The translations under genes were made by a program, and so were the position numbers. Below the pieces are notes generated by a model, which made no database searches, was not told the DNA's origin, and saw only the letters and a program-made list of their open reading frames with translations. Positions 40,487-63,573 of a stretch of 64,000 bases of DNA are shown piece by piece. Origin of the DNA: Thermoplasmatota archaeon (GTDB lineage: Archaea; Thermoplasmatota; E2; JACPAO01; JAHFTW01); the NCBI GenBank assembly GCA_038046785.1, contig JBBSVM010000003.1, positions 211,228-275,227 on the forward strand, written 5' to 3'. Within the stretch, counting starts at the first letter, position 1. Each line of letters starts with the position of its first letter.

Positions 40487-41950
40487 ATGGCCCACGCGCC
40501 AAGCATCGTCCGCGCCCTGATTCAGGAAGCCAAACGGGGCGGCCGCCCCATGGTGTTCCTGCTGCGCGAGGCGCGCGCCATCGAGGAGCCATCGCACGCC
40601 GCCGAGGCGCTCTTTGCGCTCTCCGAATTCGTGCCCGAAGACCAAGCGGGCAACGTCCTTGGCGAAGTGGCCGGACTGGTCGGCCAAGTGGAACGTGGCT
40701 GGCGCCGCGCCGAGGTCATCGCCACTCTCGCCAAACGGGGCCCAAGCTGGCGCAACGGCGACGACATGGACGAAACGTTGGACCGTTTCCAGCGCTCGCT
40801 CGTCCGCCTCACGCTCGACCTGGAAGGGTCCGACCTTTCCGCAGCGCTGCCCAACGTGGCGCGCTGGTGCCCCGAAGACTTGATGGTGGACTTGCTGCGC
40901 CGCGCCCTGACTGCGGGCAGCAACCCGTTGGAGGACGGCAAGTGCGTTCTGGCGCTCGGCGAGAACGCCGGCCTGGTCGACCTCCTCATGAGTTGGCCCG
41001 ACGCCGCGCTGCGCTCGCGGCTTCTCGCTTACCACCACAACCACGCCGCGACCCCGCGCCTGGCCGACGCCATCGCAGAGTCCACGAAACTTTCCCCCAA
41101 GGGCCAAGTTGAGGTTCTGCGCGGCGTCATCGCCAGCCTTGCCGAGGCCGACCTGGAGACCGTCCACGCGGCCCTGCCCACCGACCCTGAAAGCCGCGCC
41201 CGACTGCTTGCCGCCCTCGCCGCTCGCGCCGACCGCCTGGGCGAGAAGGGCAAGGCGGCCGCTTGGTTCGCGGAGGGAACTGCGGTCGCTGCCGCAATTC
41301 CCGAGGAGAAGGCGCGCACCAACGTTCTCGCCAATCTTGCCAAAGGGACCGAGCGGCTTGTCACCGGCAAAGCTCCGGCGCCGCCCCCTTCGCGCCCGGA
41401 ATCCAACATCCGCATCACCGCTCCCGCCGCTCCGACGGCCGTCGGTCGCCCCATCCTCGCTCTCGTGGACACCTACGACGGAAATCTCGGCGAAACCCAC
41501 TTGCGTGCCATCGGCCGCGCCGCCCCGCTCTGCTGGGCGTTCGGCCTCGACCTCGCCCTCGTCGGCTTCCCCGGAACCCTCGAAGAGACAGTGAAAAAGG
41601 CGGCCAAGGAGACCCACATCGGCGAAGGCGAAGGCTACGTCACCGAGCTCGCGGGCGCCAGCCGCATCCACTGGGTTCCGGTCACCGGCGGACTGCCCAC
41701 CTGGCCCGGCCTTCCCATCGCCACGACGCCGAGCCCGGACCCTGCCAAGGCGGTGGATTTCCCGCGCGCCCAGGAGCTGGCCCGTGGCACCCCGCTCGTC
41801 GTCCTCATGGGGCTCGGTAAACGCGGTCTGCCTCCTGGTTGGCTCAAGGTTCTGCCGCACCACTTGGAACTCACCGGGCGGCGCGTCAGCCTGGAGACCG
41901 CCACCGCAATGGGCATCATCGCTGAGCGCATGCGGCAGCTGAAACCGTAA
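40487..41950 (+). CDS. Hypothetical protein; alpha-helical N-terminal domain plus SPOUT-like (DUF531-like) C-terminal domain
   Basis: C-terminal ...VVLMGLGKRGLP...SLETATAMGIIAERM resembles SPOUT motif III. Weak homology call. Confidence 0.4.
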   Translation: MAHAPSIVRALIQEAKRGGRPMVFLLREARAIEEPSHAAEALFALSEFVPEDQAGNVLGEVAGLVGQVERGWRRAEVIATLAKRGPSWRNGDDMDETLDRFQRSLVRLTLDLEGSDLSAALPNVARWCPEDLMVDLLRRALTAGSNPLEDGKCVLALGENAGLVDLLMSWPDAALRSRLLAYHHNHAATPRLADAIAESTKLSPKGQVEVLRGVIASLAEADLETVHAALPTDPESRARLLAALAARADRLGEKGKAAAWFAEGTAVAAAIPEEKARTNVLANLAKGTERLVTGKAPAPPPSRPESNIRITAPAAPTAVGRPILALVDTYDGNLGETHLRAIGRAAPLCWAFGLDLALVGFPGTLEETVKKAAKETHIGEGEGYVTELAGASRIHWVPVTGGLPTWPGLPIATTPSPDPAKAVDFPRAQELARGTPLVVLMGLGKRGLPPGWLKVLPHHLELTGRRVSLETATAMGIIAERMRQLKP

Positions 41951-45821: not shown

Positions 45822-46028
45822 TCACCAGGAGGTGACGACCTTGACGTTGCCCGCGTTGTCGGCTTCCTTGATGGTCACGCCGTGCTGGTTCTTGGCGTGC
45901 GCCGTCGCCGCCTTGATGACCTCGTTGCGGTCGTGGCTGCGAAACAGTCCGGCACAGTCTACGCCGACGTCGGCGCAGGCAATCTGGTAGGCTTGGCGCT
46001 TGGGTTGGGATTTGCTGAACAGGCCCAT
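45822..46028 (-). CDS. DUF1059 family small protein
   Basis: 68 aa. The motifs CADVGVDCAGLF and AHAKNQHG match the DUF1059 pattern. Shares its MGLF N-terminus and upstream ATGTGACCAC context with the 49880-50182 peptide gene. Confidence 0.6.
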   Translation of the reverse strand: MGLFSKSQPKRQAYQIACADVGVDCAGLFRSHDRNEVIKAATAHAKNQHGVTIKEADNAGNVKVVTSW

Positions 46029-48283: not shown

Positions 48284-49033
48284 TCACGGTGCCAGAAGGC
48301 CGAGGCGGCGCAGGTCGCGCAGGCTGGTGCGGACTGCCTTGGCACCAAAGCGGGGGGCGAGGGCCGCGACGACCTGATCGGGGGTGCGTTTCCCGGTAGC
48401 TGCGTTGAGCAGACTTTCGGCGACCGGTTCCAGCTTGTACACCTCGACGTCGTCCGGTTCGCGGACCAAAGCAGTGGGGTAGCGGCCCTCCGGCGCTTCA
48501 AGGGTCACGCCGTGCAGAAGCTCATTGGGGTCGTGGCGCAATCGAAGCAGCACGATGCCCGGCGCTTTGGCAAGCTGCTGCGAGCGCTTCGGCTTGACGT
48601 AGGCGCGGTCCATCAACATCATGCCGCCTGCTTCGATGGCGGCAAGGTCGGCAAGCGGACGCGGGATTTTCCCCGAACGGGCCGCCTGCTGCGCCCAGAC
48701 CTTGAACTGCCGCACCTCGGCGCGCGGGTCCTCCTTGGCGTACGGTCGTTCGGTGAAGTAGGTGGCTTCGAGGCCGACGGCCGTGTCCACGGCGGCCACA
48801 CTCTTGGGCAGGTCGCCGCTCAGGTAGCTGAAGCGGTCGATGACGCGCCGGCTTGCGAAGTAGGCGGCGCCTTCCGAGGGCATCTCCGCCAGCAGTTTGG
48901 CGGTGGCTCCGGTGAGGCCGCGCCGCTTCGCGTAGGCGGCGGGTTTGGCCTGGAAGGCGGCGAGCTGGGCTGGCTCCATGAGGAGGGCAGCGAGGGCGGA
49001 CTGCAGCTTCGCAAGTTGCGCGTCTGGGGTCAT
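48284..49033 (-). CDS. DUF2063-family protein (partner of DUF692 MNIO enzymes; MbnC/TglI/BufC-like)
   Basis: 249 aa with N-terminus MTPDAQLAKLQSALAALLMEPAQ. Its start overlaps the DUF692 stop (ATGA). Assignment rests mainly on the near-universal DUF692-DUF2063 gene pairing plus N-terminal similarity. Confidence 0.55.
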   Translation of the reverse strand: MTPDAQLAKLQSALAALLMEPAQLAAFQAKPAAYAKRRGLTGATAKLLAEMPSEGAAYFASRRVIDRFSYLSGDLPKSVAAVDTAVGLEATYFTERPYAKEDPRAEVRQFKVWAQQAARSGKIPRPLADLAAIEAGGMMLMDRAYVKPKRSQQLAKAPGIVLLRLRHDPNELLHGVTLEAPEGRYPTALVREPDDVEVYKLEPVAESLLNAATGKRTPDQVVAALAPRFGAKAVRTSLRDLRRLGLLAP

Positions 49034-49872
49034 GCGCCAGCGGCTCCCTGCATGAGTTTGTCCGCTTTGCGCAGCTCGCCTTCGAGCCGTTTCAAGCTGC
49101 CGAACGTCTGGTCGCGCTCGATGAGGAGCGCGCGGACGTGGCTGGTGTCGATGACCTGCTTGGTGAGTTTCCACACCTCGGGGTGGACAGCAGCGCCGTG
49201 CGTGTCGAGGAGCTTGCCCGCGACCCACTCCGAACCGGCGAGGTGGAACTGCACGAGCCGCTCGAGCGGGAACTGGTCGAGGTAGCGCTGCGGGTCCCAG
49301 CCAAGATTGGCCGCGTTGTTGCGCAGGTTCGTGACGTCGAGCAGGACACCGCAGCCGGTTTTTGCCGCCACCTCGGCCATGAACTCCGGTTCGGTGAAGT
49401 CGTTGCCGGGGAACTGGAAATACTGGCTGATGTTCTCGATGAGGAAAGGGATGCCGACCGCATTCTGCACGGTCTTGACGTTGGCGACCACGGCGGCGAG
49501 ACTCGCCTCCGTGTAGGGGATGGGTGTGAGCTGGCCGATGGTCTGCTTGCCGATCTTGGTGAAGCAGAGGTGGTCGCTGCACCACGGCACCTTGAACTGC
49601 CGGTTGATGGGGACCATTTTGCGCAAGAAGCCGCGGTCGGGGCCGGTGGCGGTGCCAACACTCAGGGTGACACTGTGCGTCACGACCGGTCGGTCGCGGG
49701 TGTCCTCGAGAAGGTCCGCCTTGCCCGCCTCCGAGGTGTCGAGGATGTGTTCCGGCATCACCTCGAGGAAACCGAGTGGAATCCCGGGGAGGCGATAGAA
49801 ATCGCGAATGGCGCGCCGGTAACCAAGACCTGCACCAAGAAAAGGAAGGGAAGAGGGAGAAAGGGAGGGCAT
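49030..49872 (-). CDS. DUF692 / UPF0276 family multinuclear non-heme iron oxidase (MNIO; MbnB/TglH/BufB-like)
   Basis: 280 aa with family-typical motifs: PWCSDHLCF, TGCGVLLDVTNLRNN, HLAG, LLDTHG, ALLIERD, in TIM-barrel order. Confidence 0.85.
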   Translation of the reverse strand: MPSLSPSSLPFLGAGLGYRRAIRDFYRLPGIPLGFLEVMPEHILDTSEAGKADLLEDTRDRPVVTHSVTLSVGTATGPDRGFLRKMVPINRQFKVPWCSDHLCFTKIGKQTIGQLTPIPYTEASLAAVVANVKTVQNAVGIPFLIENISQYFQFPGNDFTEPEFMAEVAAKTGCGVLLDVTNLRNNAANLGWDPQRYLDQFPLERLVQFHLAGSEWVAGKLLDTHGAAVHPEVWKLTKQVIDTSHVRALLIERDQTFGSLKRLEGELRKADKLMQGAAGA

Positions 49873-49879
49873 GACAGCC

Positions 49880-50182
49880 TTACTTGGCCTTCTTGGCGGG
49901 GGCCTTGGCCGAGCCGCACGACTTGGCGCTGCCGCAGCTCTTCGCAGAGCCGCAGGACTTCGCCGAACCGCACGACTTCTCGGGGGCCTTGGCCGAGCCG
50001 CAGGACTTCGCCGAGCCGCAGCTCTTGGCGTCGCCCTTGGCGGAACCGCAGCTCTTGGCGGAGCCACAGGACTTCGCCGAGCCGCAGCTCTTGGCGTCGC
50101 CCTTCGCGCTACCGCAGCTCTTCGCAGAGCCGCAGGACTTGGCCTTGTCATCCTTCTTTTTGCCGATACCAAAGAGTCCCAT
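49880..50182 (-). CDS. Repetitive Cys-containing peptide (putative MNIO/RiPP precursor): MGLFGIGKKKDDKAK-(SCGSAK)11 with GDAK/APEK spacers
   Basis: 100-aa ORF whose stop lies 7 nt before the DUF692 start. 11 near-identical 18-nt repeats. GC3-rich codons on the minus strand. Start context shared with the DUF1059 gene. Confidence 0.6.
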   Translation of the reverse strand: MGLFGIGKKKDDKAKSCGSAKSCGSAKGDAKSCGSAKSCGSAKSCGSAKGDAKSCGSAKSCGSAKAPEKSCGSAKSCGSAKSCGSAKSCGSAKAPAKKAK

Positions 50183-50448
50183 AGTGGTCACATCCGTGTT
50201 GGCGACCCCATCCCGAAGGAGTGGGCCGGCAGAACGTTTGTCTGCAACCGAACGAAGTTGGGGTGGGTATGAAAGGCTTGAGGCGTGGGTACGGATTCCA
50301 CAGCGTTGTTTCCTCCTGGAAAACACTCCTTTCGTTGCGCGAAAAGAGCCATCGGGCTACGAAGTTCGTTTCGCTGGTTGCCGAGGGGAGCCGCTGGGCG
50401 TTTCCATCGTCCCCAAACCCTTCATCCCAACCTCGCCTCGGCCGCTTG

Positions 50449-51633
50449 ATGTGGGGCACCCCCGGCACGGCGAGCGCGCGCAGACTCCTGCTTCTTGGCT
50501 CGGGCGAACTGGGGAAAGAGGTCGCCATTGAGGCGCAAAGGTTGGGTCTTGAGGTCATCGCCTGTGACCGCTACGCCAACGCTCCCGCCATGCAGGTCGC
50601 GCACCGCAGCCACGTCCTCGACATGACCGACCCCGCAGCGCTGCGCCGCGTCATCGAAGCCGAAGACCCCGACTGGGTGGTGCCCGAGATTGAGGCCATC
50701 GCGACGGCCGAACTGGAACGGCTCGAGGGCGAAGGCTTCACCATCATCCCGACCGCGAAGGCGGCACGGCTCACCATGGACCGCGAAGGCATTCGGCGCC
50801 TGGCGGCTGAGACGCTCAAGCTGCCGACGAGCCACTACCGTTTCGCCTCGTCGCTTGCTGACGTTCAGGCCGCGGTGAAGGCGCTCGGCCTGCCCTGCGT
50901 CATCAAACCCACCATGAGCAGCAGCGGCAAGGGCCAGAGCGTCATCAAGACGGAAGCCGACGTCGCCAAGGCGTGGGAGTACGCCATGAAAGGCCGTGTC
51001 AACACGGGGCGCGTCATCGTCGAGTCGTTCATCCGCTTCGAATACGAGATCACGCTGCTCACCATCCGCCACCTCGACGCCGCAGGCAAACCGGCGACGA
51101 CGTTCTGTCCTCCCATCGGCCATGTCCAGATCGATGGCGACTACCGTGAATCGTGGCAACCCATGGCGATGAGCCCAAAGGCCATCGCGGCGAGCCAGGA
51201 CATCGCGCACAAGGTCACCGAAGCGCTTGGCGGCCGCGGCCTGTTCGGCGTCGAGCTGTTCGTCGCCGGCGACCAGGTCTGGTTCAGCGAGGTGAGCCCG
51301 CGACCGCACGACACCGGCCTCGTCACGCTTGGCAGCCAAGAGCTCAGCGAGTTCGCGCTCCACGTCCGCGCCATCACCGGCCTGCCCATCCCCGACGTCG
51401 GCGCGAAGGGGCCCTGGGCGAGCGCCGTCCTCCTGGCCACGGCGGAGTCGGCAGCGCCCACATTCTCGGGTGTCGAGGCGGCGCTCGCCGAACCGGGAAC
51501 CTTCCTGCGGCTCTTCGGCAAGCCCGCCGCGCACAAGAATCGCCGCATGGGCGTCGTGGTCGCTTCGGGCCGAACGACGGATGAAGCGCGTGACAAGGCC
51601 AAACGGGCAGCCGCGCGGCTCTCTGTCTCCTGA
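50449..51633 (+). CDS. purT: Formate-dependent phosphoribosylglycinamide formyltransferase
   Basis: ATP-grasp protein with [21 protein letters not shown] and strong PurT-like sequence throughout. Internal ATG at 50449. Confidence 0.85.
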
Positions 51634-51671: not shown

Positions 51672-52625
51672 TTGATGCGCTCGATTGCCGTCGCCCTCCT
51701 GCTGTTGCTGGCCTTGCTTGCCGGCTGTGCCACGAAAGCTCCCGCCGACCCGACCGCGGCGGCAGAACCCGCCGCAGCGGAACCGGTCACCGAGGAGCAG
51801 GCGTTCGCTGCGCAGGAGCCCGCCGCGCAGGAAGCCGCCAACAACGGCACGCTTGAGGGCGCGCGTGAGTTCTGCGAGAGCGCCGACGACTGCACCTACT
51901 GGGACAACCTGTACCACCAGTACGTCGTGTACGACCTTGACACCACCACGATTGATGTCGTGCTGGTTCCCCCCGTGGGCGCCCCCGACCAGATTGCCGC
52001 CCAGCGCCTCGCGGTGCAGCAGTGGGCCGACGGCATCGAAGCGCTCGCCGCCCCCTGGTTCCGCGACGCCTTCCAGGTCAACGTCTACGCTGTCGGCGTC
52101 GACATCCCCTCCATTGATGCGGTGTCGGACCCTGAAGTGGTCGTCATCTCCACCTCCGCCGTCGGCCTCGTCGGCATCGGCCTCGAGCCCAAGCAGCTCG
52201 CCTGCCAGATCATCGAAGGCGGCGCGATGCGCGCCGACTACGGCGGCCACAGCCACGACGGCAACGAAGTGTTCGCGGTGGACTGCACCGGAACCGGCTT
52301 CGTCTGTTTCGCCCTCAACGTCGGCGGCGCCGACGCGTTCGCCCTTTACGACCTGGTCGCCCACGAAGTTGGCCACTGCCTCGGCGCCGGCCACGTCGGC
52401 GACGCGCTCGACTTCCGCGCGCGCTACGCCCCGGTCGAGGACATCATGAGCTACCAGAACAACGCGACGAAGGTGCACTGCGTCAGCAACATGAACGTCC
52501 GCGTCCTCGAAGGCGTGTACGGCCACCTGCTCGGCCGCCACCCGGACGACCTCCTGCCGCGCGGCTCCTACTTCCCCTTCCCGCCCGCCCTCTACAAGCA
52601 GGCGGAGTGCGCCAACCCGGCGTAA
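51672..52625 (+). CDS. Metzincin-like zinc metalloprotease lipoprotein
   Basis: LLAGC lipobox and HEVGHCLGAGH (HExxHxxGxxH). Confidence 0.6.
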   Translation: MMRSIAVALLLLLALLAGCATKAPADPTAAAEPAAAEPVTEEQAFAAQEPAAQEAANNGTLEGAREFCESADDCTYWDNLYHQYVVYDLDTTTIDVVLVPPVGAPDQIAAQRLAVQQWADGIEALAAPWFRDAFQVNVYAVGVDIPSIDAVSDPEVVVISTSAVGLVGIGLEPKQLACQIIEGGAMRADYGGHSHDGNEVFAVDCTGTGFVCFALNVGGADAFALYDLVAHEVGHCLGAGHVGDALDFRARYAPVEDIMSYQNNATKVHCVSNMNVRVLEGVYGHLLGRHPDDLLPRGSYFPFPPALYKQAECANPA

Positions 52626-55999: not shown

Positions 56000-57421
56000 T
56001 CACTTCTTCGCGTATTTTGGATGGAACTGCTTGATCGTCTTGGCGTCGATGCGCGTCAGCAGCTTCTCGTCCACGGTGGCGAGGAGTTCCCAGCCCAGGT
56101 CGAGGGTCTGCTCGATGGAGCGGTCTTCGTCGCGGCCCTGGCGGACGTAGCGGTTCTCGAAGAGTTCCGCGAAGTCGAGAACCTGCAGGTCGCGGCTGGA
56201 CAGGGCGTCCTTGCCGACGATGGCGACGAGGCCACGCAGATCGCGGCCCTCGGCGTAGAAGGCGTAGCACTGGTCGGAGACCTTCTTGTGGTCGTCGCGG
56301 GTCTTGTGGTCGCCGATGCCGGCGTTCATCAAGCGGCTCAGCGAAGGCAGAACGTTGATGGGCGGGTAAACGCCCTTGCGGTGCAGCTCACGCGAGATGA
56401 CAATCTGGCCCTCGGTGATGTAGCCCGACAGGTCGGGGATGGGGTGCGTGATGTCGTCGCCCGGCATCGTCAGGATGGGGAACTGCGTCACGGAGCCCTT
56501 CTTGCCCTTGATGTTCCCGGCGCGCTCGTAGAGGTTGGCCAGGTCGGTGTACATGTAGCCAGGGTAGCCACGGCGTCCGGGCACCTCTTCGCGGGCAGCG
56601 CCGATCTGGCGCAGCGCCTCGCAGTAGTTCGTGACATCGGTGAAGATGACGAGGACGTGCATGCCAAGGTCGAAGGCGAGGTACTCCGCGGCCGTGAGGG
56701 CGAGGCGGGGCGTCAGGATGCGCTCGACCGCGGGGTCGTCGGCGAGGTTCTGGAAGATGACGGCGCGTTTCAGGGCGCCCGTGCGCTCAAACTCGCCCAT
56801 GAACTTCTTGGCTTCCTCGTTGGTGATGCCCATCGCCGCGAAGACGACGGCGAACGACTCGTCCGTGCCGCGCACCTTGGCCTGGCGGGCAATCTGCAAC
56901 GCGATGTCGTTGTGCGGCAGACCGGCGCCCGAGAAGATGGGGAGCTTCTGGCCGCGCACGAGCGAGTTGTTGCCGTCAATCGTGCTGATGCCGGTCTGGA
57001 TGAAGTCGTGCGGCGAGGCGCGCGAGTAGGGGTTGATGGCGGCGCCGTTGATGTCGCGGCTGACCTCGGGGATGATCTCCGGCCCGCCGTCGATGGGGGA
57101 GCCGGCGCCCGAGAAGACGCGGCCGAGAATGTTCTTGGCGAGGCCGAACTGGATGGTCTCGCCGAGGAACTTCACCGTCGTCTTGTCGTTGTCGATGCCG
57201 GTGGTGCCTTCGAAGACCTGGACGACCACCTGCTTGTCGGAGGTGTCGAGGACTTGGCCGCGGCGGATGGCGCCGGAGGGGAGGCGGATCTGCACCAGTT
57301 CGCCGTACCCGACTGGGTGGGTCTTCTCGACGAAGACGAGGGGGCCCTTCACCGTCGAGATGGTGCGGTACTCCTTCTGCGTGGTCTGGGCGGTGGGCGC
57401 GGTCGTGGTCTTGCTCGCCAT
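56000..57421 (-). CDS. atpB: A-type ATP synthase subunit B
   Basis: Strong match to A/V-type B subunits throughout ([34 protein letters not shown]). Confidence 0.9.
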
Positions 57422-59184
57422 TAGGCAAACACCTCCTTCTTCGACTTGGCGGAAATCGTGTTGAATTCGGCCTCCATCTTGGCGAGGGCGGCGGCATACG
57501 CTTCGTCGAACTTCGCCTCGAAGCGGCTGCGCGCCATGTCGGTGACGGCGGCGAGGCCGGTGAGCTCCTTCGTCGTGGCACCCTGCTTGAGGGCAGCGCC
57601 GGCGAGGGTCTGGTAGCGCAGAATGGCTTTCCAGAGCTTGTAGTCCTTCTGCAGCGAGGAGTAGGCGTCCACTTTGTCGTAGGCGTTCTGCTGCAAGTAG
57701 ATTTCACGAATCAGGCGGGCGGTCTCCAGGGTGACCTGCTGCTCGGGCGGCAGGGCGTCGGAGCCGACGAGCTGGACGATCTCCTGCAACTCGGCCTCCT
57801 TCTGAAGAATCTCCATGATGCTGGCCTTCGTCTCGTTCCAGTCGGGGGCCGCCTTGGCGGAGTAGTACGGGGCGAGGTACTCGGGGTAGAGCGAGTAGGA
57901 CTGCAGCCAGTTGATGGCGGGGAAGTGGCGGCGCTGGGCGAGCTTGGCGTCGAGGGCCCAGAAGACCTTGACGATGCGCAGCGTCGCCTGCGTGACCGGT
58001 TCCGAGAAGTCGCCGCCGGCGGGCGACACGGCGCCGATGACCGAGATGGAGCCTTCGCCGCCGTTGAGGACGGTGCAGCGGCCAGCGCGCTCGTAGAATT
58101 CGCTCAGGCGAGCGGAGAGGTAAGCGGGGTAGCCTTCCTCGCCGGGCATCTCTTCGAGGCGGGAGCCGATTTCACGCATGGCTTCCGCCCAGCGGCTGGT
58201 CGAGTCGGCCATGAGGGCGACGTCGAAGCCCATGTCGCGGTAGTACTCGGCAATCGTGATGCCGGTGTAGCAGGAGGCCTCACGGGCCGCCACCGGCATG
58301 TTGCTGGTGTTGGCGATGAGGCAGGTGCGCGCCATCAGCGGGTTGCCGGTCTGCGGGTCCTCGAGGACGGGGAACTCGGTGAGAACCTCGGTCATCTCGT
58401 TGCCGCGCTCGCCGCAGCCGATGTAGACGACAACCTGGGCGTCCGAGTACTTGGCGAGGGACTGCTGCGTGACGGTCTTGCCGGAGCCGAAGGGGCCCGG
58501 GATGGCCGCGGTGCCGCCCTTGGCGATGGGGAACAGACCGTCGAGGATGCGCATCCCCGTGTTGAGCGGGATGGTCGGCAGCTGCTTCTCCGTGAAGGGG
58601 CGCGGCTTGCGCACGGGCCACTTGTGGTGCATGGCGACCTTGGCGCCGTTGTCGAGGGTGACGACGGTGTCGTCGATGGTGAACGAGCCCGACTTGACGT
58701 CGGTGACCTTGCCGCCCTGAACATCGGGGGGCAGCATGATCTTGTGCAGGATGGATTTGGATTCCTGGACGGTGCCGAGGACCTGGCCGGGCTTGACGGC
58801 GTCGCCCTTCTTGACAAGCGGCTTGAACTCCCAGAGCTTCTTGTGGTCGAGACCGGGGACGTCGACGCCGCGCAGGATGAAGTGACCCATCTGCGCCTGC
58901 AGGACCTCGAGCGGGCGCTGGATGCCGTCGTAGATGCTGGTCATGAGGCCGGGGCCAAGCTCGACGACGAGCGGCAGGCCGGTGTTCTCGACGGGCTCGC
59001 CGGGCCTGACGCCGGAGGTGTCCTCGTAGACCTGGATGATGGACTTCTCACCCTCGATCTGGATGACTTCGCCCATCAGGCGCTCGTTGCCCACACGCAC
59101 GATGTCGTACATGGCGGGCTTGATGCCGACTGCCGTGACGACGGGGCCGGAGACGCGGTACACAGTTCCCTTGAGGTTCACCAT
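57421..59184 (-). CDS. atpA: A-type ATP synthase catalytic subunit A
   Basis: P-loop GPFGSGKT and A-subunit non-homologous region. No intein. Internal ATG at 59184 gives 587 aa. Confidence 0.9.
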
Positions 59185-59477
59185 AGATCGACACCTACTG
59201 CTTGTTTGATTTTCTCTCGGAGGGTGTTGTCCTCCTCCAGGCCGACGGCGACCACCGTGGGCGAAACACTTGCCACCAGCTCGCCGCGGGTGCGGGCGCT
59301 GATGCGCTTCATGTCCCGGGTCTCCAGGACGAGAATGGAGACGCCATCGTCGCGGCGGGCGAGGGCGACGGCACGCTCGAGCTCCTCTTCGGAGGCGGCA
59401 TCCCACACCTTGCGGATGCCGGCGAGGCGGAAGCCGAGCGTGAACTCGGGGCGACCCACAACAGCGAGCTCAGCCAT
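59178..59477 (-). CDS. atpF: A-type ATP synthase subunit F
   Basis: 99 aa in the conserved operon position. Typical N-terminus [20 protein letters not shown]. Confidence 0.8.
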
Positions 59478-60547
59478 TACACAATCAGCTCCTTGAGGCG
59501 CTCGGTGGAGAGGCCAGCGGCTTTGCCACGCGCGATGGCGCGAAGCGTGGTGACTTCGCGGTGCTTGCGCACGAGGAACATCAGGATGGGGACGAGGCTC
59601 AGCGGGTTGGTGTGGCCGAGGCGGTCGAGGGCGGCGAGGTGGTTGCGCCAGACGGCGGCCTGGAACGGTCCAAGGCGGCCGGACTTGGCGGCGGCCTCCA
59701 CGCCCTCCTGGAGCCCCTTGAGTTTGGTGGCGCCAAGCGCCTCGGCGAAGCCGGCGAGGCTCTTGCTGCGGGAGAGGGTGAGGAGGTCGGCGACCGACAG
59801 GCTGCGGCCGCCCGGGATGATGAAGGGGGTGAAGTCGCCCGTCTCGTTGGCGGCCACCCAGCGCGCGGCATTCAGGATGTTGCGGTTGTCAACCTCGCGG
59901 CGCGCGAATTCGAGGACGACGGTGACGCCCTTCGCACCGGAGGCCTCCAGACCGGTGAGGAGGCTGTGGAAGTACGCTTTGTCGAGAGCATCCTCGTAGC
60001 GCGACAGCGGTGAGCCAGCAGGGACCTTCTGCAAGGTGGCGGCCCACGCCTTGGCCTGCCCGCCCTGGTTGGCGAGCGCCGTGGTGACATCGGTCACCGA
60101 CTTGACGTCGTCTCCCAGGAGCGGGGCGAAGAGGTCGTAGGTGGCCTGGTTCTCGAGGACCATCTCGCGCAGCAGCTCGGCGCGCGTGGCGCCCGATGCC
60201 TTGCCGCGCAGGAGCGTCTTGAGGTCTGCGACGTGGTAGCGGTCGAGGAAGAGGGCGATGAGGGCGCCCGCCTCTCCGCCCACCATGGAGCGGATGGACT
60301 CGTAGGTGCGCTCTTCGTTGACGGTGAGGGCGGCTTCGAGCAGGTCGAGGCCGGAGAACTTCGTGGAGAGCTCGTCCACTTCGGCCTTGTAGGCGGACTC
60401 CTGGATGAACAGGGTGATTTCCGGGACATCCATCTGCAGCGCCTTGGCGTAGTCGAGGTCGTCGAGCAGCTTGGCGCGCTTCGCGGCGACACGGGCCACG
60501 GCGTAGGGGAAGTTGCTGGGGCCCCTGCGCAGAAGCTGGAGCGCCAT
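59477..60547 (-). CDS. atpC: A-type ATP synthase subunit C
   Basis: 356-aa helical protein in the C position, coupled to atpF by an overlap. Confidence 0.8.
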   Translation of the reverse strand: MALQLLRRGPSNFPYAVARVAAKRAKLLDDLDYAKALQMDVPEITLFIQESAYKAEVDELSTKFSGLDLLEAALTVNEERTYESIRSMVGGEAGALIALFLDRYHVADLKTLLRGKASGATRAELLREMVLENQATYDLFAPLLGDDVKSVTDVTTALANQGGQAKAWAATLQKVPAGSPLSRYEDALDKAYFHSLLTGLEASGAKGVTVVLEFARREVDNRNILNAARWVAANETGDFTPFIIPGGRSLSVADLLTLSRSKSLAGFAEALGATKLKGLQEGVEAAAKSGRLGPFQAAVWRNHLAALDRLGHTNPLSLVPILMFLVRKHREVTTLRAIARGKAAGLSTERLKELIV

Positions 60548-60554
60548 GAGTCAC

Positions 60555-61109
60555 CTAGGCGAGAAGTCCCGCTTCGGCGCGCAAGATGGTGCGCCAGGCG
60601 TCGTCAAGGAGCGTGGCGTAGGCGAGGTCGAGGCGGGCGTCGCCCGTCTCCGATTCCACCAGGATGCCGCCCGCGATGGAGGTGGCACCGGCGTAGCTGT
60701 AGGGCTTGGCCTTCTCAAGCGTCGCAGCGTCCGCCGCAGCGCCCCAAACTTTACCGGCCGGGATGACCGCCTCGGCGCGGGCAAGCAGCGCCTTGAGGTG
60801 GGCTTGGCGGCTCTTGGCAGGTGCCGCTTCGAGGGCTGCGAGGATGGCGCCCTTGAGCTGGGTGCGCAGGGCGGCCTCACCGGAGAGGGTGACCTTGCGG
60901 GCCTCCGACTCGGCGCGGCTTGCGACCTGGCTGGCGACCGCTTCGGCCTGGCGGCTGGCGTCGGCAAGGCGGGCCGTCTCGTAGGCGGCAGCCTGTGCGC
61001 GCGCGGCGCTGAGAATCGAGGCTGCCTCGCTGCGGGCGGCCGCCACGAGGGTGGCGGCGCGCGTCTCGCCGTCGCGGCGGACGTCGGTGATGACCTCCGA
61101 GAGACCCAT
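60555..61109 (-). CDS. atpE: A-type ATP synthase subunit E
   Basis: 184 aa with an Ala/Glu-rich coiled-coil N-terminus and conserved C-terminal domain. Confidence 0.75.
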   Translation of the reverse strand: MGLSEVITDVRRDGETRAATLVAAARSEAASILSAARAQAAAYETARLADASRQAEAVASQVASRAESEARKVTLSGEAALRTQLKGAILAALEAAPAKSRQAHLKALLARAEAVIPAGKVWGAAADAATLEKAKPYSYAGATSIAGGILVESETGDARLDLAYATLLDDAWRTILRAEAGLLA

Positions 61110-61123
61110 GGGGATCCGCTCGG

Positions 61124-61348
61124 TTAGACCATCTTGCCCATCAGCAGGAAAGCGATGACGAACCCGAAGAGAACGATGGTCTCCGGGATGACGGTGAGGG
61201 TCAGGCCCTTACCGAAGTTCTTCTCGTCCTCGGCGGTCGCGCCAACGGCGGCGGCGCCGATGCTGTACTGGGCGATGGCCGTGCCAATGCCTGCGAGACC
61301 GACCGCGAGGCCGGCGCCGATGCCGATGAGTCCAGATTCGATGGCCAT
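61124..61348 (-). CDS. atpK: A-type ATP synthase proteolipid subunit K (c)
   Basis: 74-aa two-helix hairpin with Gly-rich helix 1 and a conserved Glu in helix 2. Confidence 0.8.
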   Translation of the reverse strand: MAIESGLIGIGAGLAVGLAGIGTAIAQYSIGAAAVGATAEDEKNFGKGLTLTVIPETIVLFGFVIAFLLMGKMV

Positions 61349-61425
61349 GGTGGTGTGCTCCTTGTGTGGTGGTGGGGGAAGAGGGGTGGGAGGAGGGTCC
61401 GTTTGGCGCCCGGTTCAGGAGGCCA

Positions 61426-63573
61426 TCAGGAGGATTGTTTTGCGCGACGCCCGAACGGTACATAAGGCCGTCCGCCGCCCTGGTAGAACTTTCCGAAGAA
61501 CTCGACGAACTGCAGACGGAGGGACTGCAGCGTGCCGGCGATGATCGAGAGGACCAGGATGAGGCTGAAGGCGAGGATGTAGACGACCCAGCCAAGGATG
61601 CTGGCCGTGTTGGCGACACCGTCGTGGCCAGCGATGACGACGAAGGCGATGTTGCCAAACGCGATGGCCATGCCGGCCTTCGAGGCGCCGATGGCGGCCA
61701 GACGCGTGTAGGAGAGGACGTTGCCCGCGAGGCCGGGAATCTCGAGGAGCGCGATGAAGCCGACGCCGATGACGTGCGCGGCGCCCATGTAGAGCAGAGC
61801 GACGGAGGCGACGGCGAGGCCGACGCCGAGGTAGCCGAGGATGGAGCCCCAGGCGAAGAAGGCGGTGGCACCGCCCGCCATCAGAAGGAGCCAGGCCCCC
61901 TTCTCTTGGATGGCGAGCTTGTGGCCGTGCGCCTTGGCGACGTTGCGGTAGCCAAGGATGAGGCCGAGGATGATGTGGACGAGACCGATCAGCATGCCCC
62001 AGACGAGGAGGGCGAGCGTGTCGTGCACCTTCGAGTAGTAGCCGAGGTTGACGATGCCGGCGAGGCTCAGGTGGGTGTCGCTGTGGGGCGCGAGGATGCC
62101 GACGAGGCCGGTCGTCTCAGAGGCGTGGGTGGCCATCGCTCCGGCGGCCGCCTCTCCCGCTGCGGCCAGGTGTTCGCCGCCCGTCTTGTAGAGGAAGCCG
62201 TGGTCCGGGATGTGCAGGCCGAGGATGTTCTCCCAGGACAGCTCGCCCGCGGCGGCGGCATGGGAGTCCACGACGAAGTGGATGCCAAGCGCCTCGCCAA
62301 AGACAAAGAGGCCAACGATGGCGCTCATCAGGCCGCCCATGAAGATGCCGCGACCGACAGCGGGGCCGCCGATGCCAAAGACGTGGTTCTTCTTGAGGAA
62401 CAGGCCGATGGCCATGATGAGCAGGCCGACGGCGACGTCGCCCACCATGAGGCCGAAGAAGAGCGGGAAGAAGACCAGCATCAGCTTGGTCGGGTCAATC
62501 TCCTGGTAGCGCGGCTTTCCGAGAAGGCCGAGGAAGAATTCGTAGGGACGGGCGATGCCCTTGTTGACGAGGTGGACGGGGGCTTCCTCGGCCGAAGTGG
62601 CGGCGTGGTGCGCTTCGGCGTGGGCATCGCCGTGGCCCTCTGCGCCGTGCTCCGCCTTGTGCTCGCCGTGGCCGTGGTGCTCGGCGTGGGCCGGCATCGG
62701 CGCGTCGCCGAGGTTCTCCAAGTAGAGCTGCTCGCCAAACTTGGCCTTGAGGGCAACACGAACGGTGTCGAGGCTCGCCACGGGAACCCAGCCCTCGATG
62801 TGGAACGTCGTCTTGGTGAGACCGAACTGCAGCGGCGCCTGGGTCTGTTCGACCTGGGAAGAGAGCTGCGCCTCCAGGGCGGCGAGGCGAGGGGCCCAGG
62901 CGGCGCGCAGGAGAGCGGTTTCGCCCTCCGCCTTGGCGAGGTCGGCGACGAGGGCGATGCGCTGCGCTTGCAGAGCGGCAAGCCGCTGCGCCGGAACACC
63001 TGTCCCGGCTGGGACGGTGGCGGCGGAGAAGCCGGCGGCGGCGAGCGCCTTCTCGGTGGCGGCAGCCTGCGACAGCGGAGCGACGACGGCGAGGACGGCG
63101 CCGCTGCGGGTCGCCTCGGCACCGGAGGGGATGAGTGGCTCGCTGCGCGTGGAGCCGACGAAGAGCTTCACCGAACGCAGGCTGGCGGCGAGGCCCAAAT
63201 CGAGGTCGAGGCCGGCGAGTGGGCGCAGCGTCGACTCCTCGGAATCGAGGGTGGACAGTTTGGTGCGCAGCGTTGCAGCGCGGTCGAGGGCCGGCTGGAG
63301 CGCCGCCTGCGCCTCGGCAAGCGTGGTGGAGGTGGAGCCGGGGGCCGCACCGTCGGCGCCCATCGCCTTGGCGAGGCCGCGCAGGGCGACCAGGTCGGCG
63401 CTCGCCGACTCGCCCGCCGCAAGCGGCGTGCCCATGCGGGTGGTGCCCGTGGGGTCGGCGTACTCTTCGATGTGGAGGACACCCTGGGCGTGCAGGGTCT
63501 CGATGGCGCCGGCGAGATGGCTCTGGTGGCCTCCAATCAGGAGACGGGCCATGCGGGCCGGCAGGAAGGACAT
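61426..63573 (-). CDS. atpI: A-type ATP synthase subunit I (a)
   Basis: 715 aa with a soluble N-terminal half and about 7 TM helices in the C-terminal half. His-rich insert (HAEHHGHGEHKAEHGAEGHGDAHAEAHH). Confidence 0.85.
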   Translation of the reverse strand: MSFLPARMARLLIGGHQSHLAGAIETLHAQGVLHIEEYADPTGTTRMGTPLAAGESASADLVALRGLAKAMGADGAAPGSTSTTLAEAQAALQPALDRAATLRTKLSTLDSEESTLRPLAGLDLDLGLAASLRSVKLFVGSTRSEPLIPSGAEATRSGAVLAVVAPLSQAAATEKALAAAGFSAATVPAGTGVPAQRLAALQAQRIALVADLAKAEGETALLRAAWAPRLAALEAQLSSQVEQTQAPLQFGLTKTTFHIEGWVPVASLDTVRVALKAKFGEQLYLENLGDAPMPAHAEHHGHGEHKAEHGAEGHGDAHAEAHHAATSAEEAPVHLVNKGIARPYEFFLGLLGKPRYQEIDPTKLMLVFFPLFFGLMVGDVAVGLLIMAIGLFLKKNHVFGIGGPAVGRGIFMGGLMSAIVGLFVFGEALGIHFVVDSHAAAAGELSWENILGLHIPDHGFLYKTGGEHLAAAGEAAAGAMATHASETTGLVGILAPHSDTHLSLAGIVNLGYYSKVHDTLALLVWGMLIGLVHIILGLILGYRNVAKAHGHKLAIQEKGAWLLLMAGGATAFFAWGSILGYLGVGLAVASVALLYMGAAHVIGVGFIALLEIPGLAGNVLSYTRLAAIGASKAGMAIAFGNIAFVVIAGHDGVANTASILGWVVYILAFSLILVLSIIAGTLQSLRLQFVEFFGKFYQGGGRPYVPFGRRAKQSS

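Follow-up and report, generated by a model that had tools for sequence, protein, structure and literature searches.

A cysteine-repeat peptide gene beside an MNIO enzyme and its partner: a candidate archaeal RiPP-type operon in Thermoplasmatota

Gene content of the locus

We analysed a 64,000-nt stretch of the genome of an uncultured Thermoplasmatota archaeon (contig JBBSVM010000003.1, positions 211,228 to 275,227; hereafter the window) that contains a minus-strand ORF built from repeated SCGSAK units. This ORF occupies exactly 49880-50182 and lies directly upstream of a gene for a DUF692 protein, a multinuclear non-heme iron oxidative enzyme (MNIO), which is followed by the gene of a two-domain partner protein (Table 1). 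As the preliminary description of this DNA had reported, the precursor-type gene and the DUF692 gene are separated by 7 nt (49873-49879, DUF692 ATG at 49872). The partner ATG in turn overlaps the MNIO stop codon (ATGA), giving the order precursor, 7-nt gap, MNIO, partner.

The precursor peptide consists of (I) the leader MGLFGIGKKKDDKAK, (II) eleven SCGSAK units grouped 2, 3, 2 and 4, with GDAK, GDAK and APEK as the spacers between the groups, and (III) the tail APAKKAK; relatives have longer, AP/AK-rich tails ending in KKK. Its net charge is +17. Judged from sequence, no signal peptide is present in the precursor, the N-terminus MGLFGIGKKKDDKAK being without a hydrophobic segment, and the same holds for all archaeal relatives.

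Table 1. Positions of the features described in the text, numbered along the window.
Feature	Position	Strand	Remarks
Precursor ORF, 303 nt, 100 aa + stop	49880-50182	minus	ATG 50182-50180, TAA 49882-49880
N-terminal leader MGLFGIGKKKDDKAK	50138-50182	minus	residues 1-15
Core array, eleven 18-nt SCGSAK units	49904-50137	minus	
SCGSAK units, block 1 (2)	50120-50137, 50102-50119	minus	
SCGSAK units, block 2 (3)	50072-50089, 50054-50071, 50036-50053	minus	
SCGSAK units, block 3 (2)	50006-50023, 49988-50005	minus	
SCGSAK units, block 4 (4)	49958-49975, 49940-49957, 49922-49939, 49904-49921	minus	
12-nt spacers	GDAK 50090-50101, GDAK 50024-50035, APEK 49976-49987	minus	
C-terminal tail APAKKAK + TAA stop	49880-49903	minus	Lys/Ala/Pro-rich
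MNIO (DUF692, MbnB/TglH/ChrH family), 280 aa	49030-49872	minus	GenBank MEK6985451.1; PF05114
Partner protein, 249 aa	48284-49033	minus	helical DUF2063-like domain + C-terminal winged-helix RRE domain
Shine-Dalgarno-like GGATGTGA	50188-50195	minus	5 nt upstream of ATG
Conserved 25-nt element CGTTCGGTTGCAGACAAACGTTCTG	50230-50254	minus	dyad GCAGA-N7-TCTGC; between putative TATA box and start codon
Putative archaeal BRE/TATA-like box AAGCCTTTCATAC	50267-50279	minus	assigned by position and conservation only
Shadow ORF, 133 aa	49871-50272	plus	GC3 0.49 vs 0.82-0.89 for real genes here; crosses the precursor's conserved promoter region
Shadow ORF, 215 aa	49884-50531	plus	antisense frame with shared wobble positions; in-array GC3 0.889; crosses divergent promoter region into PurT start

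The precursor gene is apparently unannotated. Every form of its sequence tested was without a match in a 15-billion-protein collection, while a word-index protein search recovered one true relative, P0001. When 1.84 billion representatives were searched exhaustively with HMMER, 37 matches came back; among the 36 others, the 11 examined are repeat proteins without kinship to the precursor, most of them of the xGNAxV hexapeptide type. Related loci were therefore not gathered through the precursor protein but collected via their MNIO and partner genes.

Alignment of these relatives reveals a leader with the family consensus M-G/A-[LI]-[FMLI]-x0-3-[FW]-G-x-K-K-K, and the first Cys always falls at residue 15-30. 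In relative L003 the first 30 nt of the leader are identical to those of the window, although the MNIO genes are only 83.6% identical in nucleotides. We infer that the leader is the recognition sequence for the RiPP recognition element (RRE) domain of the partner.

The tight precursor-MNIO-partner order is found in all relatives examined, the genes being -4 to 24 nt apart (in L035 a 4-nt overlap joins precursor and MNIO), and it is kept even where the outer neighbours differ (FIST/HisKA, PKD, NYN, methyltransferase). No metal-related gene is conserved near the operon in the loci compared, and we found no protease or exporter gene for the precursor. A reprolysin-like metallopeptidase (51672-52625) was considered as a maturation protease and rejected, as it is not conserved beside the operon in relatives. 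We note that synteny extends to the PurT and DEAD-box helicase genes that flank the operon.

Upstream of the precursor, Shine-Dalgarno-like GGAGGTGA variants stand 4-6 nt before the ATG, the same site in relatives reading GGAGATGA, CAGGTGA, GGACGTGA or GGAAGTGA. The copy in the window, GGATGTGA, presumably pairs with the 3' end of the archaeal 16S rRNA. Further upstream lies the 25-nt element, with one occurrence in the window (0 expected) and conserved counterparts in 10-12 archaeal loci; it may act as an operator or form a 5'-UTR hairpin. The consensus RNA fold of the upstream region contains a weak 5-bp helix (-2.5 kcal/mol) with one covarying pair; since this helix is so weak, we do not claim a riboswitch or structured leader. 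Alignment of the upstream regions gives AAsCCTTGAATAC as the family consensus of the putative BRE/TATA-like box. The whole window has no Rfam match and a tRNA search found none; bacterial promoter and terminator scans are uninformative, the host being archaeal.

Strand, frame and start codon

Comparison of the reading frames shows that the minus-strand frame is the coding one. In this frame all eleven units are identical, whereas the units read in the plus frame of ORF 49884-50531 vary in their amino acids (AEPHDL, ALPQLF, AEPQDF, AEPQLL). Aligning related loci had been proposed as a check, and in 16 of them (MNIO identity 47-96%) it is the minus frame, and not another frame or strand, in which the leader and the S-C repeat core (D-C in one locus) are kept; the stop position is also conserved. 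The MGLF start, which had been pointed out as shared with another gene, does recur at 46028 in the DUF1059 gene, where the 10 bases upstream of it, ATGTGACCAC, are identical too.

The GC3 argument for the minus strand, in contrast, falls away. GC3 is 0.889 in the plus frame of ORF 49884-50531 and 0.890 in the precursor frame, and it cannot settle the strand because the antisense plus frame shares wobble positions with the precursor frame. In fact, within the array that plus frame has GC1/GC2/GC3 values of 0.69/0.41/0.89, of which GC1 and GC2 are even more gene-like than those of the minus frame. This profile, and the antisense ORFs called by public gene callers on L029 and on the P0015 contig, would fit a locus in which one of the two plus ORFs is the real gene or the region is non-coding. 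However, such a locus would account neither for the identical minus-frame units and the Shine-Dalgarno-like motif ahead of the minus-strand ATG nor for the conserved leader, repeat motif and stop position; moreover, the plus ORFs cross the conserved promoter-like region and the PurT start, and ORF 49871-50272 has a GC3 of just 0.49. We regard this alternative as practically negligible. Both plus ORFs exist and are shadows, as had been proposed, and the minus-strand ORF is very probably a real gene and the substrate of the adjoining MNIO-partner pair.

An upstream GTG at 50326, which would yield a 148-aa version, was rejected as the start: what relatives share ahead of the ATG is DNA sequence, and the frame in which it lies differs from one to the next. 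We place the start at the ATG at 50182 because the MG[LI] start with its Shine-Dalgarno-like motif is conserved.

The repeat at the peptide and DNA levels

The preliminary description had read the gene as eleven near-identical 18-bp tandem repeats. The eleven units are there and are identical as peptide, but the DNA array is not near-perfect, 9 of the 11 units being distinct. Pairwise DNA identity of the units averages 78% (range 56-100%), neighbours match at 12-15 of 18 nt, and all differences among the 18-nt units are synonymous. At period 18, Tandem Repeats Finder reports 66-69% matches with 11-12% indels, and its top array has a period of 66 (2.4 copies, 90% matches, 49988-50144). When SCGSAK was back-translated eleven times with the genome's own codon usage, the resulting null identity was 0.752 ± 0.023, compared with 0.782 observed (P = 0.11). 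The peptide repeat is thus far beyond chance, while repetition in the DNA does not exceed what the peptide imposes, with the exception of a single exact repeat of 38 nt at offset 66 (null 21 ± 4 nt, P ≈ 0.006). One block duplication, marked by this exact repeat, looks recent.

Unit identities of about 77% in nucleotides and about 100% in amino acids are found in all relatives too. High identity had been taken to imply recent expansion or concerted evolution, which these data do not bear out: the units are at synonymous saturation, here as in all relatives, and we therefore conclude that the repeat is kept by selection on the peptide.

Some observations nevertheless fit a DNA tandem repeat that has expanded recently or evolves in concert and is hypervariable (contingency-type) between strains. 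Besides the 38-nt repeat, L015 contains a 72-nt exact repeat, and the close relative L029 (MNIO 96% identical in amino acids, 91% in nucleotides) differs from the window by a unit-multiple indel, with three consecutive units before APEK where the window has GDAK and two units. In addition, seven short-read contigs are broken within the array or at its end (L029, L030, L031, L033, L034, L038 and the P0015 contig), and copy number ranges from 3 to 15 over the family. With unit identity at the null level, however, DNA homogenisation is not operating, and the Ser codons alternate between AGC and TCN, which no single synonymous step interconverts. Every length change is in frame, so that no on/off switching results. 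Finally, L035 and L036, two contigs of one population, are identical over 3.8 kb, and 22 further contigs were collapsed as same-neighbour. We therefore consider a homogenised or hypervariable DNA array improbable. Of the earlier suggestion that repeat number is variable, the part concerning relatives holds (3, 3, 3, 4, 4, 5, 5, 5, 6, 6, 6, 7, 7, 11 and 15 Cys in the full-length family genes), whereas for strains it is a conjecture.

The MNIO enzyme and its partner

The MNIO protein matches PF05114 at E = 8.9e-76 (255 bits against a cut-off of 25) over profile positions 1-262 of 263. All nine iron ligands of TglH (H71, H107, E151, D184, N187, H216, D229, H231 and E258; PMC10880893) have aligned counterparts, namely H66, H101, E146, D179, N182, H210, D223, H225 and E252. 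The best NCBIfam profiles are BufB (215.3 bits, cut-off 310; E = 1e-63) and HvfB (178.5 bits, cut-off 360; E = 1e-52), followed by ApyH at 1e-34 and by ChrH and MbnB at 1e-10. The enzyme thus scores below the curated cut-off of every named subfamily and outside the BufB and HvfB equivalogs, and consequently their chemistry cannot be transferred to it with confidence.

The surrounding MNIO clade comprises about 86 clusters, beyond which identity falls sharply from 45% to 41%. Sampled loci below this drop carry other precursors, such as the CGCGYCYC-type core of L041 and the DUF2282 bufferin precursors of L025 and L026. The locus and these roughly 86 clusters of related enzymes point to a coherent branch in archaea that has a precursor type of its own: the leader is short, a signal peptide is lacking, the S-C core is repeated and, in most members, each unit contains a Lys.

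Adjoining the MNIO gene, the partner combines a DUF2063-like helical domain with an RRE domain. Its likeness to DUF2063 is in fold only, as Pfam DUF2063 gave no match at E ≤ 0.01, and Pfam, NCBIfam and PDB sequence searches returned only marginal PqqD/ApyI matches. Fold comparison reveals a resemblance to TglI and NGO1945; TglI is nearer in structure than are the DUF2063 partners of thiooxazole systems. PME-type 2 partners have been defined by an NGO1945/TglI-related structure, no Pfam DUF2063 signature and precursors without a signal peptide (PMC12452194), and all three features are found here.

Comparison with known MNIO systems

Among the closest parallels are the captophorins, i.e., oxazolin (HvfA/HvfB/HvfC, Haemophilus influenzae), fontiphorin (FonABC) and gonophorin, with which the window's precursor shares short tandem Cys repeats, Lys and a Cys-Gly dyad. 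HvfBC and FonBC iteratively modify such Lys-containing repeats, each Cys losing 4 Da (PMC11252979, PMC13097082). In captophorins this iterative modification is carried out by an MNIO and a two-domain partner (helical plus RRE); the same gene set is present here. Both have minimal gene clusters and copy numbers that vary within the family, with up to 58 Cys reported (PMC12452194), and HvfB is the second-best NCBIfam profile for the enzyme studied here. However, the motif is the 6-mer K-S-C-G-S-A rather than the 5-mer E-G-K-C-G, and Lys stands at -2 and +4 of Cys (K-S-C-G-S-A-K) instead of forming Lys-Cys or Cys-Lys. Unlike captophorins, the locus also lacks a Sec signal peptide and a DoxX gene, its partner is without the DUF2063 sequence signature of PME-type 1, its MNIO falls under the HvfB cut-off (178 of 360), and its host is an archaeon; the captophorin survey was confined to Pseudomonadota (PMC13097082).

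Bufferins (BufA/BufB/BufC; DUF2282, 6/12-Cys precursors) share the top MNIO profile, BufB, and Cys as the modification target, which here is inferred. They are copper chelators (PMC11626156, PMC12452194), and their copper buffering is the model for the function proposed below. In contrast to the peptide described here, bufferin precursors form folded domains that lack repeats, are exported by Sec and go with DUF2063 partners. The enzyme of the window, moreover, stays below the BufB cut-off (310). True bufferin loci are exemplified by L025 and L026, with 33-34% MNIO identity to the window's enzyme.

TglHI (3-thiaglutamate, Pseudomonas syringae) is similar in that TglH is the second-best solved relative of the MNIO, the precursor has no signal peptide and the partner is of PME-type 2 in the sense of PMC12452194. 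TglH, however, removes the beta-carbon from one Cys at the C-terminus, which a peptide-aminoacyl-tRNA ligase has attached, whereas here eleven Cys are internal and no such ligase is present.

Compared by description and not by sequence, the putative "Adjamnio-I" precursors have the same order of precursor, MNIO and PME-type 2 partner. Their Cys count (8-21 Cys, no known signature, 122-293 aa; Antoine et al. 2025, PMC12452194) fits, while lengths in the archaeal family run from 41 to 154 aa, the 100 aa here being outside the published range; the text of PMC12452194 mentions no archaeal Adjamnio-I members. Finally, Polyangia (myxobacterial) loci (L010-L012, L014, L018-L022 and L028; MNIO 35-37% identical) share the S-C core motif, with 2-3 repeats of K-(S/A)-S-C-S-A or K-K-S-C-S-G. 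Their precursors start with a lipoprotein-type signal peptide (...AVACGG, ...TAACGG), unlike the short cytoplasmic-type leader and 3-15 repeats of the archaeal ones.

Proposed function and alternatives

We propose that the locus is an archaeal RiPP-type operon of three genes, for precursor, MNIO enzyme and partner, in which the ORF supplies the substrate. The leader (MGLFGIGKKK...) would be bound by the winged-helix RRE domain of the partner, which would form a complex with the multinuclear non-heme iron enzyme. Working along the unstructured core, the enzyme would then carry out a four-electron oxidation of each of the eleven Cys, which share an identical K-S-C-G-S context, turning it into a heterocycle that contains sulfur. 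The likeliest such ring is the 5-thiooxazole of oxazolin, fontiphorin and bufferins. In those systems HvfB and FonB make 5-thiooxazoles on Cys, with BufB1/BufB2 in the same group (PMC13097082). The product may be a polydentate peptide binding soft metals, probably Cu(I). It would probably stay full-length in the cytoplasm as a metal buffer because no signal peptide, protease gene or exporter gene was found. Peptide selection rather than DNA homogenisation would maintain the repeat, and copy number, and hence capacity, would shift over evolution through occasional in-frame block duplications and deletions. For this reading as a whole, from RiPP-type operon and Cys-derived heterocycles to a cytoplasmic soft-metal buffer under peptide selection, our confidence is modest, somewhat above even; the specific thiooxazole chemistry and the copper-buffering role are held more tentatively, at slightly less than even.

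Part of this caution concerns the reaction itself. The same operon and substrate could give rise to another chemistry, such as the formation of oxazolone-thioamides, the linking of adjacent units by thioether or other bonds, or rearrangement of the backbone, with a product that is not primarily a copper chelator and may be redox-active, antimicrobial or structural. MNIO reaction types are diverse (PMC12452194), including beta-carbon excision, oxazolone-thioamide formation, macrocyclisation and C-terminal rearrangements. The position of the enzyme under all equivalog cut-offs, the drop to 41% identity or less that sets its clade off from bacterial subfamilies, and a partner nearer to TglI than to NGO1945 point the same way. 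So do the K-S-C-G-S flanks, which differ from EGKCG in that Ser, not Lys, directly precedes Cys; tests of FonB variants show that Cys-flanking residues can abolish turnover (PMC13097082). On the other hand, BufB and HvfB are by far the best profiles, internal Cys with a small residue after it, in short tandem repeats, fits known thiooxazole substrates, and the C-terminal Cys that the TglH type needs is absent. Another chemistry is in our judgement unlikely, though to be taken seriously.

The lack of a conserved metal-related gene nearby also counts against the proposed reading, as does the strongly cationic character of the peptide, which could serve another role. Eleven free thiols, the charge of +17 and the AK/AP-rich tails would suit a peptide that works unmodified, either as a metallothionein-like Cys-rich sponge or as a histone-H1-like nucleic-acid-binding polycation, with the MNIO adjacency incidental. 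The missing signal peptide, protease gene and exporter gene would agree with this, and the shared PurT and DEAD-box helicase genes reveal that part of the neighbourhood is ordinary genome synteny. However, the precursor-MNIO-partner order recurs in every relative examined, including those with other outer neighbours, and the precursor type changes together with the MNIO clade. Furthermore, every member has a conserved leader, some 15 residues long, ahead of its first Cys, a trait of RiPPs and not of metallothioneins. An unmodified peptide is therefore very improbable in our view.

Implications

MNIO-modified peptides are described as bacterial in surveys (PMC12452194, PMC13097082), with precursors across the eubacterial tree (PMC12452194). 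With methanobactins, bufferins, oxazolin and fontiphorin, they form a growing class of metal-binding natural products. The locus may represent the first recognised archaeal family of such peptides, a possibility to which we give a little less than even weight: a cytoplasmic, leader-dependent metal buffer of multiple thiooxazoles (or a related heterocycle), present in Thermoplasmatota and Halobacteriales MAGs, with its capacity set by the number of K-S-C-G-S copies (3-15). If so, the peptide would amount to a "RiPP metallothionein" assembled after translation and would stand apart from the bufferins and oxazolins that bacteria export. If the Cys do become thiooxazoles, the system would be modular, with the number of metal sites set by repeat number, and a candidate intracellular copper-buffering mechanism in archaea. 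Such a family would be largely invisible to annotation, since gene callers overlook a small repetitive gene or put it on the opposite strand. In fact, the missing precursor in the 15-billion-protein collection and the frequent short-read assembly breaks suggest that genes of this kind are systematically under-counted.

We further note two points of method. Where an antisense frame has its wobble positions in common with a sense frame, GC3 is no help in choosing between the two, and a perfect peptide repeat in a high-GC genome takes on the look of a DNA repeat even at synonymous saturation.

Gene, strand and frame of the precursor

The putative precursor encodes, in order, MGLFGIGKKKDDKAK, two SCGSAK units, GDAK, three units, GDAK, two units, APEK, four units and APAKKAK. 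Reading the ORF directly, we find exactly eleven units, and the preliminary description is correct in its coordinates, number of units, spacers and 7-nt distance to the DUF692 start. Four forms of the precursor protein were searched, with no match among 15 billion proteins.

Coordinates of the features in the window
Feature	Position	Strand	Remarks
Precursor ORF	50182-49880	minus	ATG to TAA, 100 codons
SCGSAK units	49904-50137	minus	eleven
Precursor stop codon	49882-49880	minus	7 nt from MNIO ATG (49872-49870)
TATA-like box AAGCCTTTCATAC	50267-50279	minus	conserved across archaeal loci; consensus AAsCCTTGAATAC
25-nt element CGTTCGGTTGCAGACAAACGTTCTG	50230-50254	minus	dyad GCAGA-N7-TCTGC (N6/7 across loci); ~12 nt downstream of TATA-like box
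MNIO gene	49030-49872	minus	PF05114 (MbnB/TglH/ChrH), E = 9e-76, whole profile
Partner gene	48284-49033	minus	start overlaps MNIO stop codon (ATGA)
Shorter shadow ORF	49871-50272	plus	GC3 = 0.49
Longer shadow ORF	49884-50531	plus	wobble positions common with precursor; units vary in amino acids
DUF1059 gene	45822-46028	minus	68 aa, N-terminus MGLFSKS
Metallopeptidase-like gene	51672-52625	plus	317 aa
A/V-type ATP synthase operon	56000-63573	minus	A, B, C/AC39 and I subunits
DUF531 gene	40487-41950

The minus-strand assignment had been argued in part from GC3-rich codons. This argument does not discriminate, since the longer plus-strand ORF has the same wobble positions: GC1/2/3 is 0.42/0.69/0.89 in the precursor frame and 0.69/0.41/0.89 in the plus frame, the latter being closer to real genes here (0.65-0.75/0.42-0.50/0.82-0.89). 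The assignment itself holds, and is decided by other evidence. Read in the minus frame, all eleven units give one and the same peptide; in the longer plus-strand ORF they read AEPHDL, ALPQLF, AEPQDF and AEPQLL. Alignment of orthologous loci shows the same frame, and its product, kept in every relative, and all loci have a GGAGGTGA-like motif 4-6 nt 5' of the ATG. DNA upstream of the ATG is also conserved, but in a frame that differs by relative (ADKRSAG, CRQTVCF or LQTNVLP), which rules out an upstream GTG at 50326 as the start. Both plus-strand ORFs are shadows, as had been proposed.

The repeat is conserved as peptide, not as DNA

The array had been described as a near-perfect 18-nt tandem repeat, implying recent expansion or concerted evolution. 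The near-perfect repeat is not borne out: 9 of the 11 units are distinct, pairwise identity averages 78% (range 56-100%), and adjoining units have 12-15 of 18 nt in common. All differences are synonymous (Ser AGC/TCC/TCG/TCT, Gly GGC/GGT, Ala GCG/GCC, Cys TGC/TGT). At period 18, Tandem Repeats Finder gives only 66-69% matches with 11-12% indels; its best array has a period of 66 (2.4 copies, 90%). When SCGSAK was back-translated eleven times with the codon usage of 28 confident window genes, unit identity was 0.752 ± 0.023, and the 0.782 seen in the array is within expectation (P = 0.11). Identical peptides and high-GC codon bias thus force the apparent DNA repeat, and the array bears no sign of unit homogenisation. 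What stands of the expansion claim is one fairly recent block duplication, marked by a 38-nt stretch that recurs exactly at offset 66 (KGDAKSCGSAKSC; null 21 ± 4 nt, P ≈ 0.006). Units of relatives likewise show ~77% nucleotide and ~100% amino acid identity, with occasional long exact repeats (e.g., 72 nt in locus L015). The SCGSAK repeat is ordinary in nature, with selection acting on the peptide and not on the DNA.

Relatives and copy number

The window MNIO is MEK6985451.1, and the partner is 100% identical to AABX89_03585, encoded on a 379-kb contig of a Candidatus Thermoplasmatota archaeon. Searches with both proteins retrieved loci (numbered with the prefix L) in metagenomes and in MAGs of Thermoplasmata, Thermoplasmatota and Halobacteriales. 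All of these loci carry a small co-oriented gene directly upstream of the MNIO, encoding a ~15-residue leader (MG[LI]F...FG.KKK), tandem repeats and a Lys/Ala/Pro-rich tail. The repeats are built on S-C, replaced by D-C in a single locus, and in most members read KSCGS, KSCSS or KSCST. Among full-length precursor genes, the number of cysteines varies: 3 (L001, L006, L039), 4 (L007, L016), 5 (L004, L027, L040), 6 (L003, L005, L037), 7 (L015, L035), 11 (window) and 15 (L008 = L017).

The variation is seen between relatives, including a close one. In L029, the closest (MNIO 96% identical in amino acids, 91% in nucleotides), three consecutive units precede APEK, compared with GDAK and two units in the window, a unit-multiple indel; L035 and L036, two contigs of one population, are identical. 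The L029 contig begins within the array, and seven independent short-read contigs (L029, L030, L031, L033, L034, L038 and the P0015 contig, the last with gene positions without DNA) end inside the array or at most 40 nt from its 3' end, as expected from the effect of a repeat on assemblers. For 2 of the 7, public gene calling wrongly chose the antisense shadow ORF. Precursors of this kind are systematically lost or mis-called.

We note that precursor nucleotides are more conserved than the adjoining MNIO gene. When window 49880-50045 is compared with L029 1-165, the last 111 nt of the precursor match throughout; mismatches number 1-4 over 147-165 nt, as against 70 over 839 nt for the MNIO gene (P = 0.0002-0.005). 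A 30-nt leader stretch is identical between window 50153-50182 and L003 3760-3789, two loci with 83.6% identity between their MNIO genes. Possible causes are constraint at the mRNA level, recombination or bias in the alignment.

The MNIO clade comprises ~86 clusters at ≥45% identity, followed by a sharp fall to ≤41%. Loci sampled below this drop carry different precursors: DUF2282 bufferin precursors in L025 and L026, and a CGCGYCYC-type core in L041. The latter putative precursor (L041 401-694; dense Cys core NDCGCGYCYCTGGGCSCAMC) lies before a 41%-identical MNIO together with a second small ORF, and is a distinct type of MNIO substrate, apparently one not yet characterised. At 35-37% MNIO identity, loci of Polyangia/Deltaproteobacteria MAGs and metagenomes (L010-L012, L014, L018-L022, L028) encode lipoprotein-type precursors, with 2-3 K-S-S-C-S repeats in Polyangia. 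A lipoprotein-type signal peptide with a lipobox-like AVACGG or TAACGG precedes the 2-3 K-S-S-C-S-A or K-K-S-C-S-G repeats, and these precursors may be exported, lipidated cousins of the archaeal family.

A minimal MNIO cluster and its proposed chemistry

The operon is organised as a minimal MNIO RiPP cluster. Alignment with TglH, in which the nine iron ligands were defined (PMC10880893), reveals all nine in the window enzyme (H66, H101, E146, D179, N182, H210, D223, H225, E252). The partner has an RRE domain; against Pfam it shows no DUF2063 match and, at its C-terminus, only a marginal PqqD/ApyI match. Only nine partner clusters were found among 5.8 billion.

In HvfABC (oxazolin) and FonABC (fontiphorin), an MNIO-partner complex converts each Cys of EGKCG repeats into a 5-thiooxazole, with -4 Da each (PMC11252979; PMC13097082). 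By analogy to these systems, the conserved leader would be recognised by the partner's RRE domain, after which the MNIO would work through the K-S-C-G-S modules, oxidising each of the eleven Cys in turn. The modified peptide would be a polydentate binder of thiophilic metal (copper), as was shown of bufferins (PMC11626156; PMC12452194). Since the precursor lacks a signal peptide, we infer that the modified peptide would act in the cytoplasm.

The window system would thereby work like the repeat-type captophorins, yet it differs from them in three tested features: enzyme equivalog, DUF2063 signature and signal peptide. The main alternative is that the same substrate undergoes a different MNIO chemistry. 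The best NCBIfam profiles, BufB (215 bits) and HvfB (178 bits), score well below their curated cut-offs (310 and 360), and the enzyme reaches no subfamily cut-off; the partner is closest to TglI; and Cys is preceded by Ser, in contrast to Lys in EGKCG repeats. Thiooxazole formation is our preferred reading. The system may overlap the undescribed adjamnio-I set (PMC12452194), with a precursor of 8-21 Cys, an MNIO and a PME-type 2 partner. A full-text literature search returned no paper describing archaeal MNIO clusters, and a survey of archaeal RiPPs makes no mention of DUF692/MNIO.

Upstream elements and neighborhood

The 25-nt element occurs once in the window, and both it and the TATA-like box are found at the same positions in L001, L003-L007, L015, L016, L027, L035, L037, L039 and L040. 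Because it sits over the expected transcription start, the element is a candidate operator, possibly of a metal-responsive regulator. RNA structure support for the element is weak, as is the predicted hairpin.

The preliminary description also noted an MGLF start context shared with another gene. This is the DUF1059 gene, which has in common with the precursor the MGLF codons and the 10 nt before the ATG (ATGTGACCAC); MG[LIV][FML] matches only three times when the 64-kb window is translated in six frames. The likeness may reflect a translation-initiation cassette common to both genes, an N-terminal motif or coincidence.

Beyond the three-gene operon, synteny extends only to PurT (divergent) and a DEAD-box helicase; remaining neighbors vary, and no conserved protease, exporter or metal-homeostasis gene was found across the relatives' neighborhoods. 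In L001 (4793-6799), L037 (1-2059), L039 (3130-3846) and L040 (1-1122), but not in the window, the operon is bordered by FIST-domain and PAS/HisKA sensor-kinase genes, which may indicate a regulatory association. Just beyond PurT, the window encodes a secreted-looking protein with a zinc-metallopeptidase motif (HEVGHCLGAGH) and weak Pfam matches of the Reprolysin-like kind, not conserved beside the operon in relatives. The ATP synthase operon and DUF531 gene are consistent with an archaeal (Thermoplasmatota) origin of the contig.
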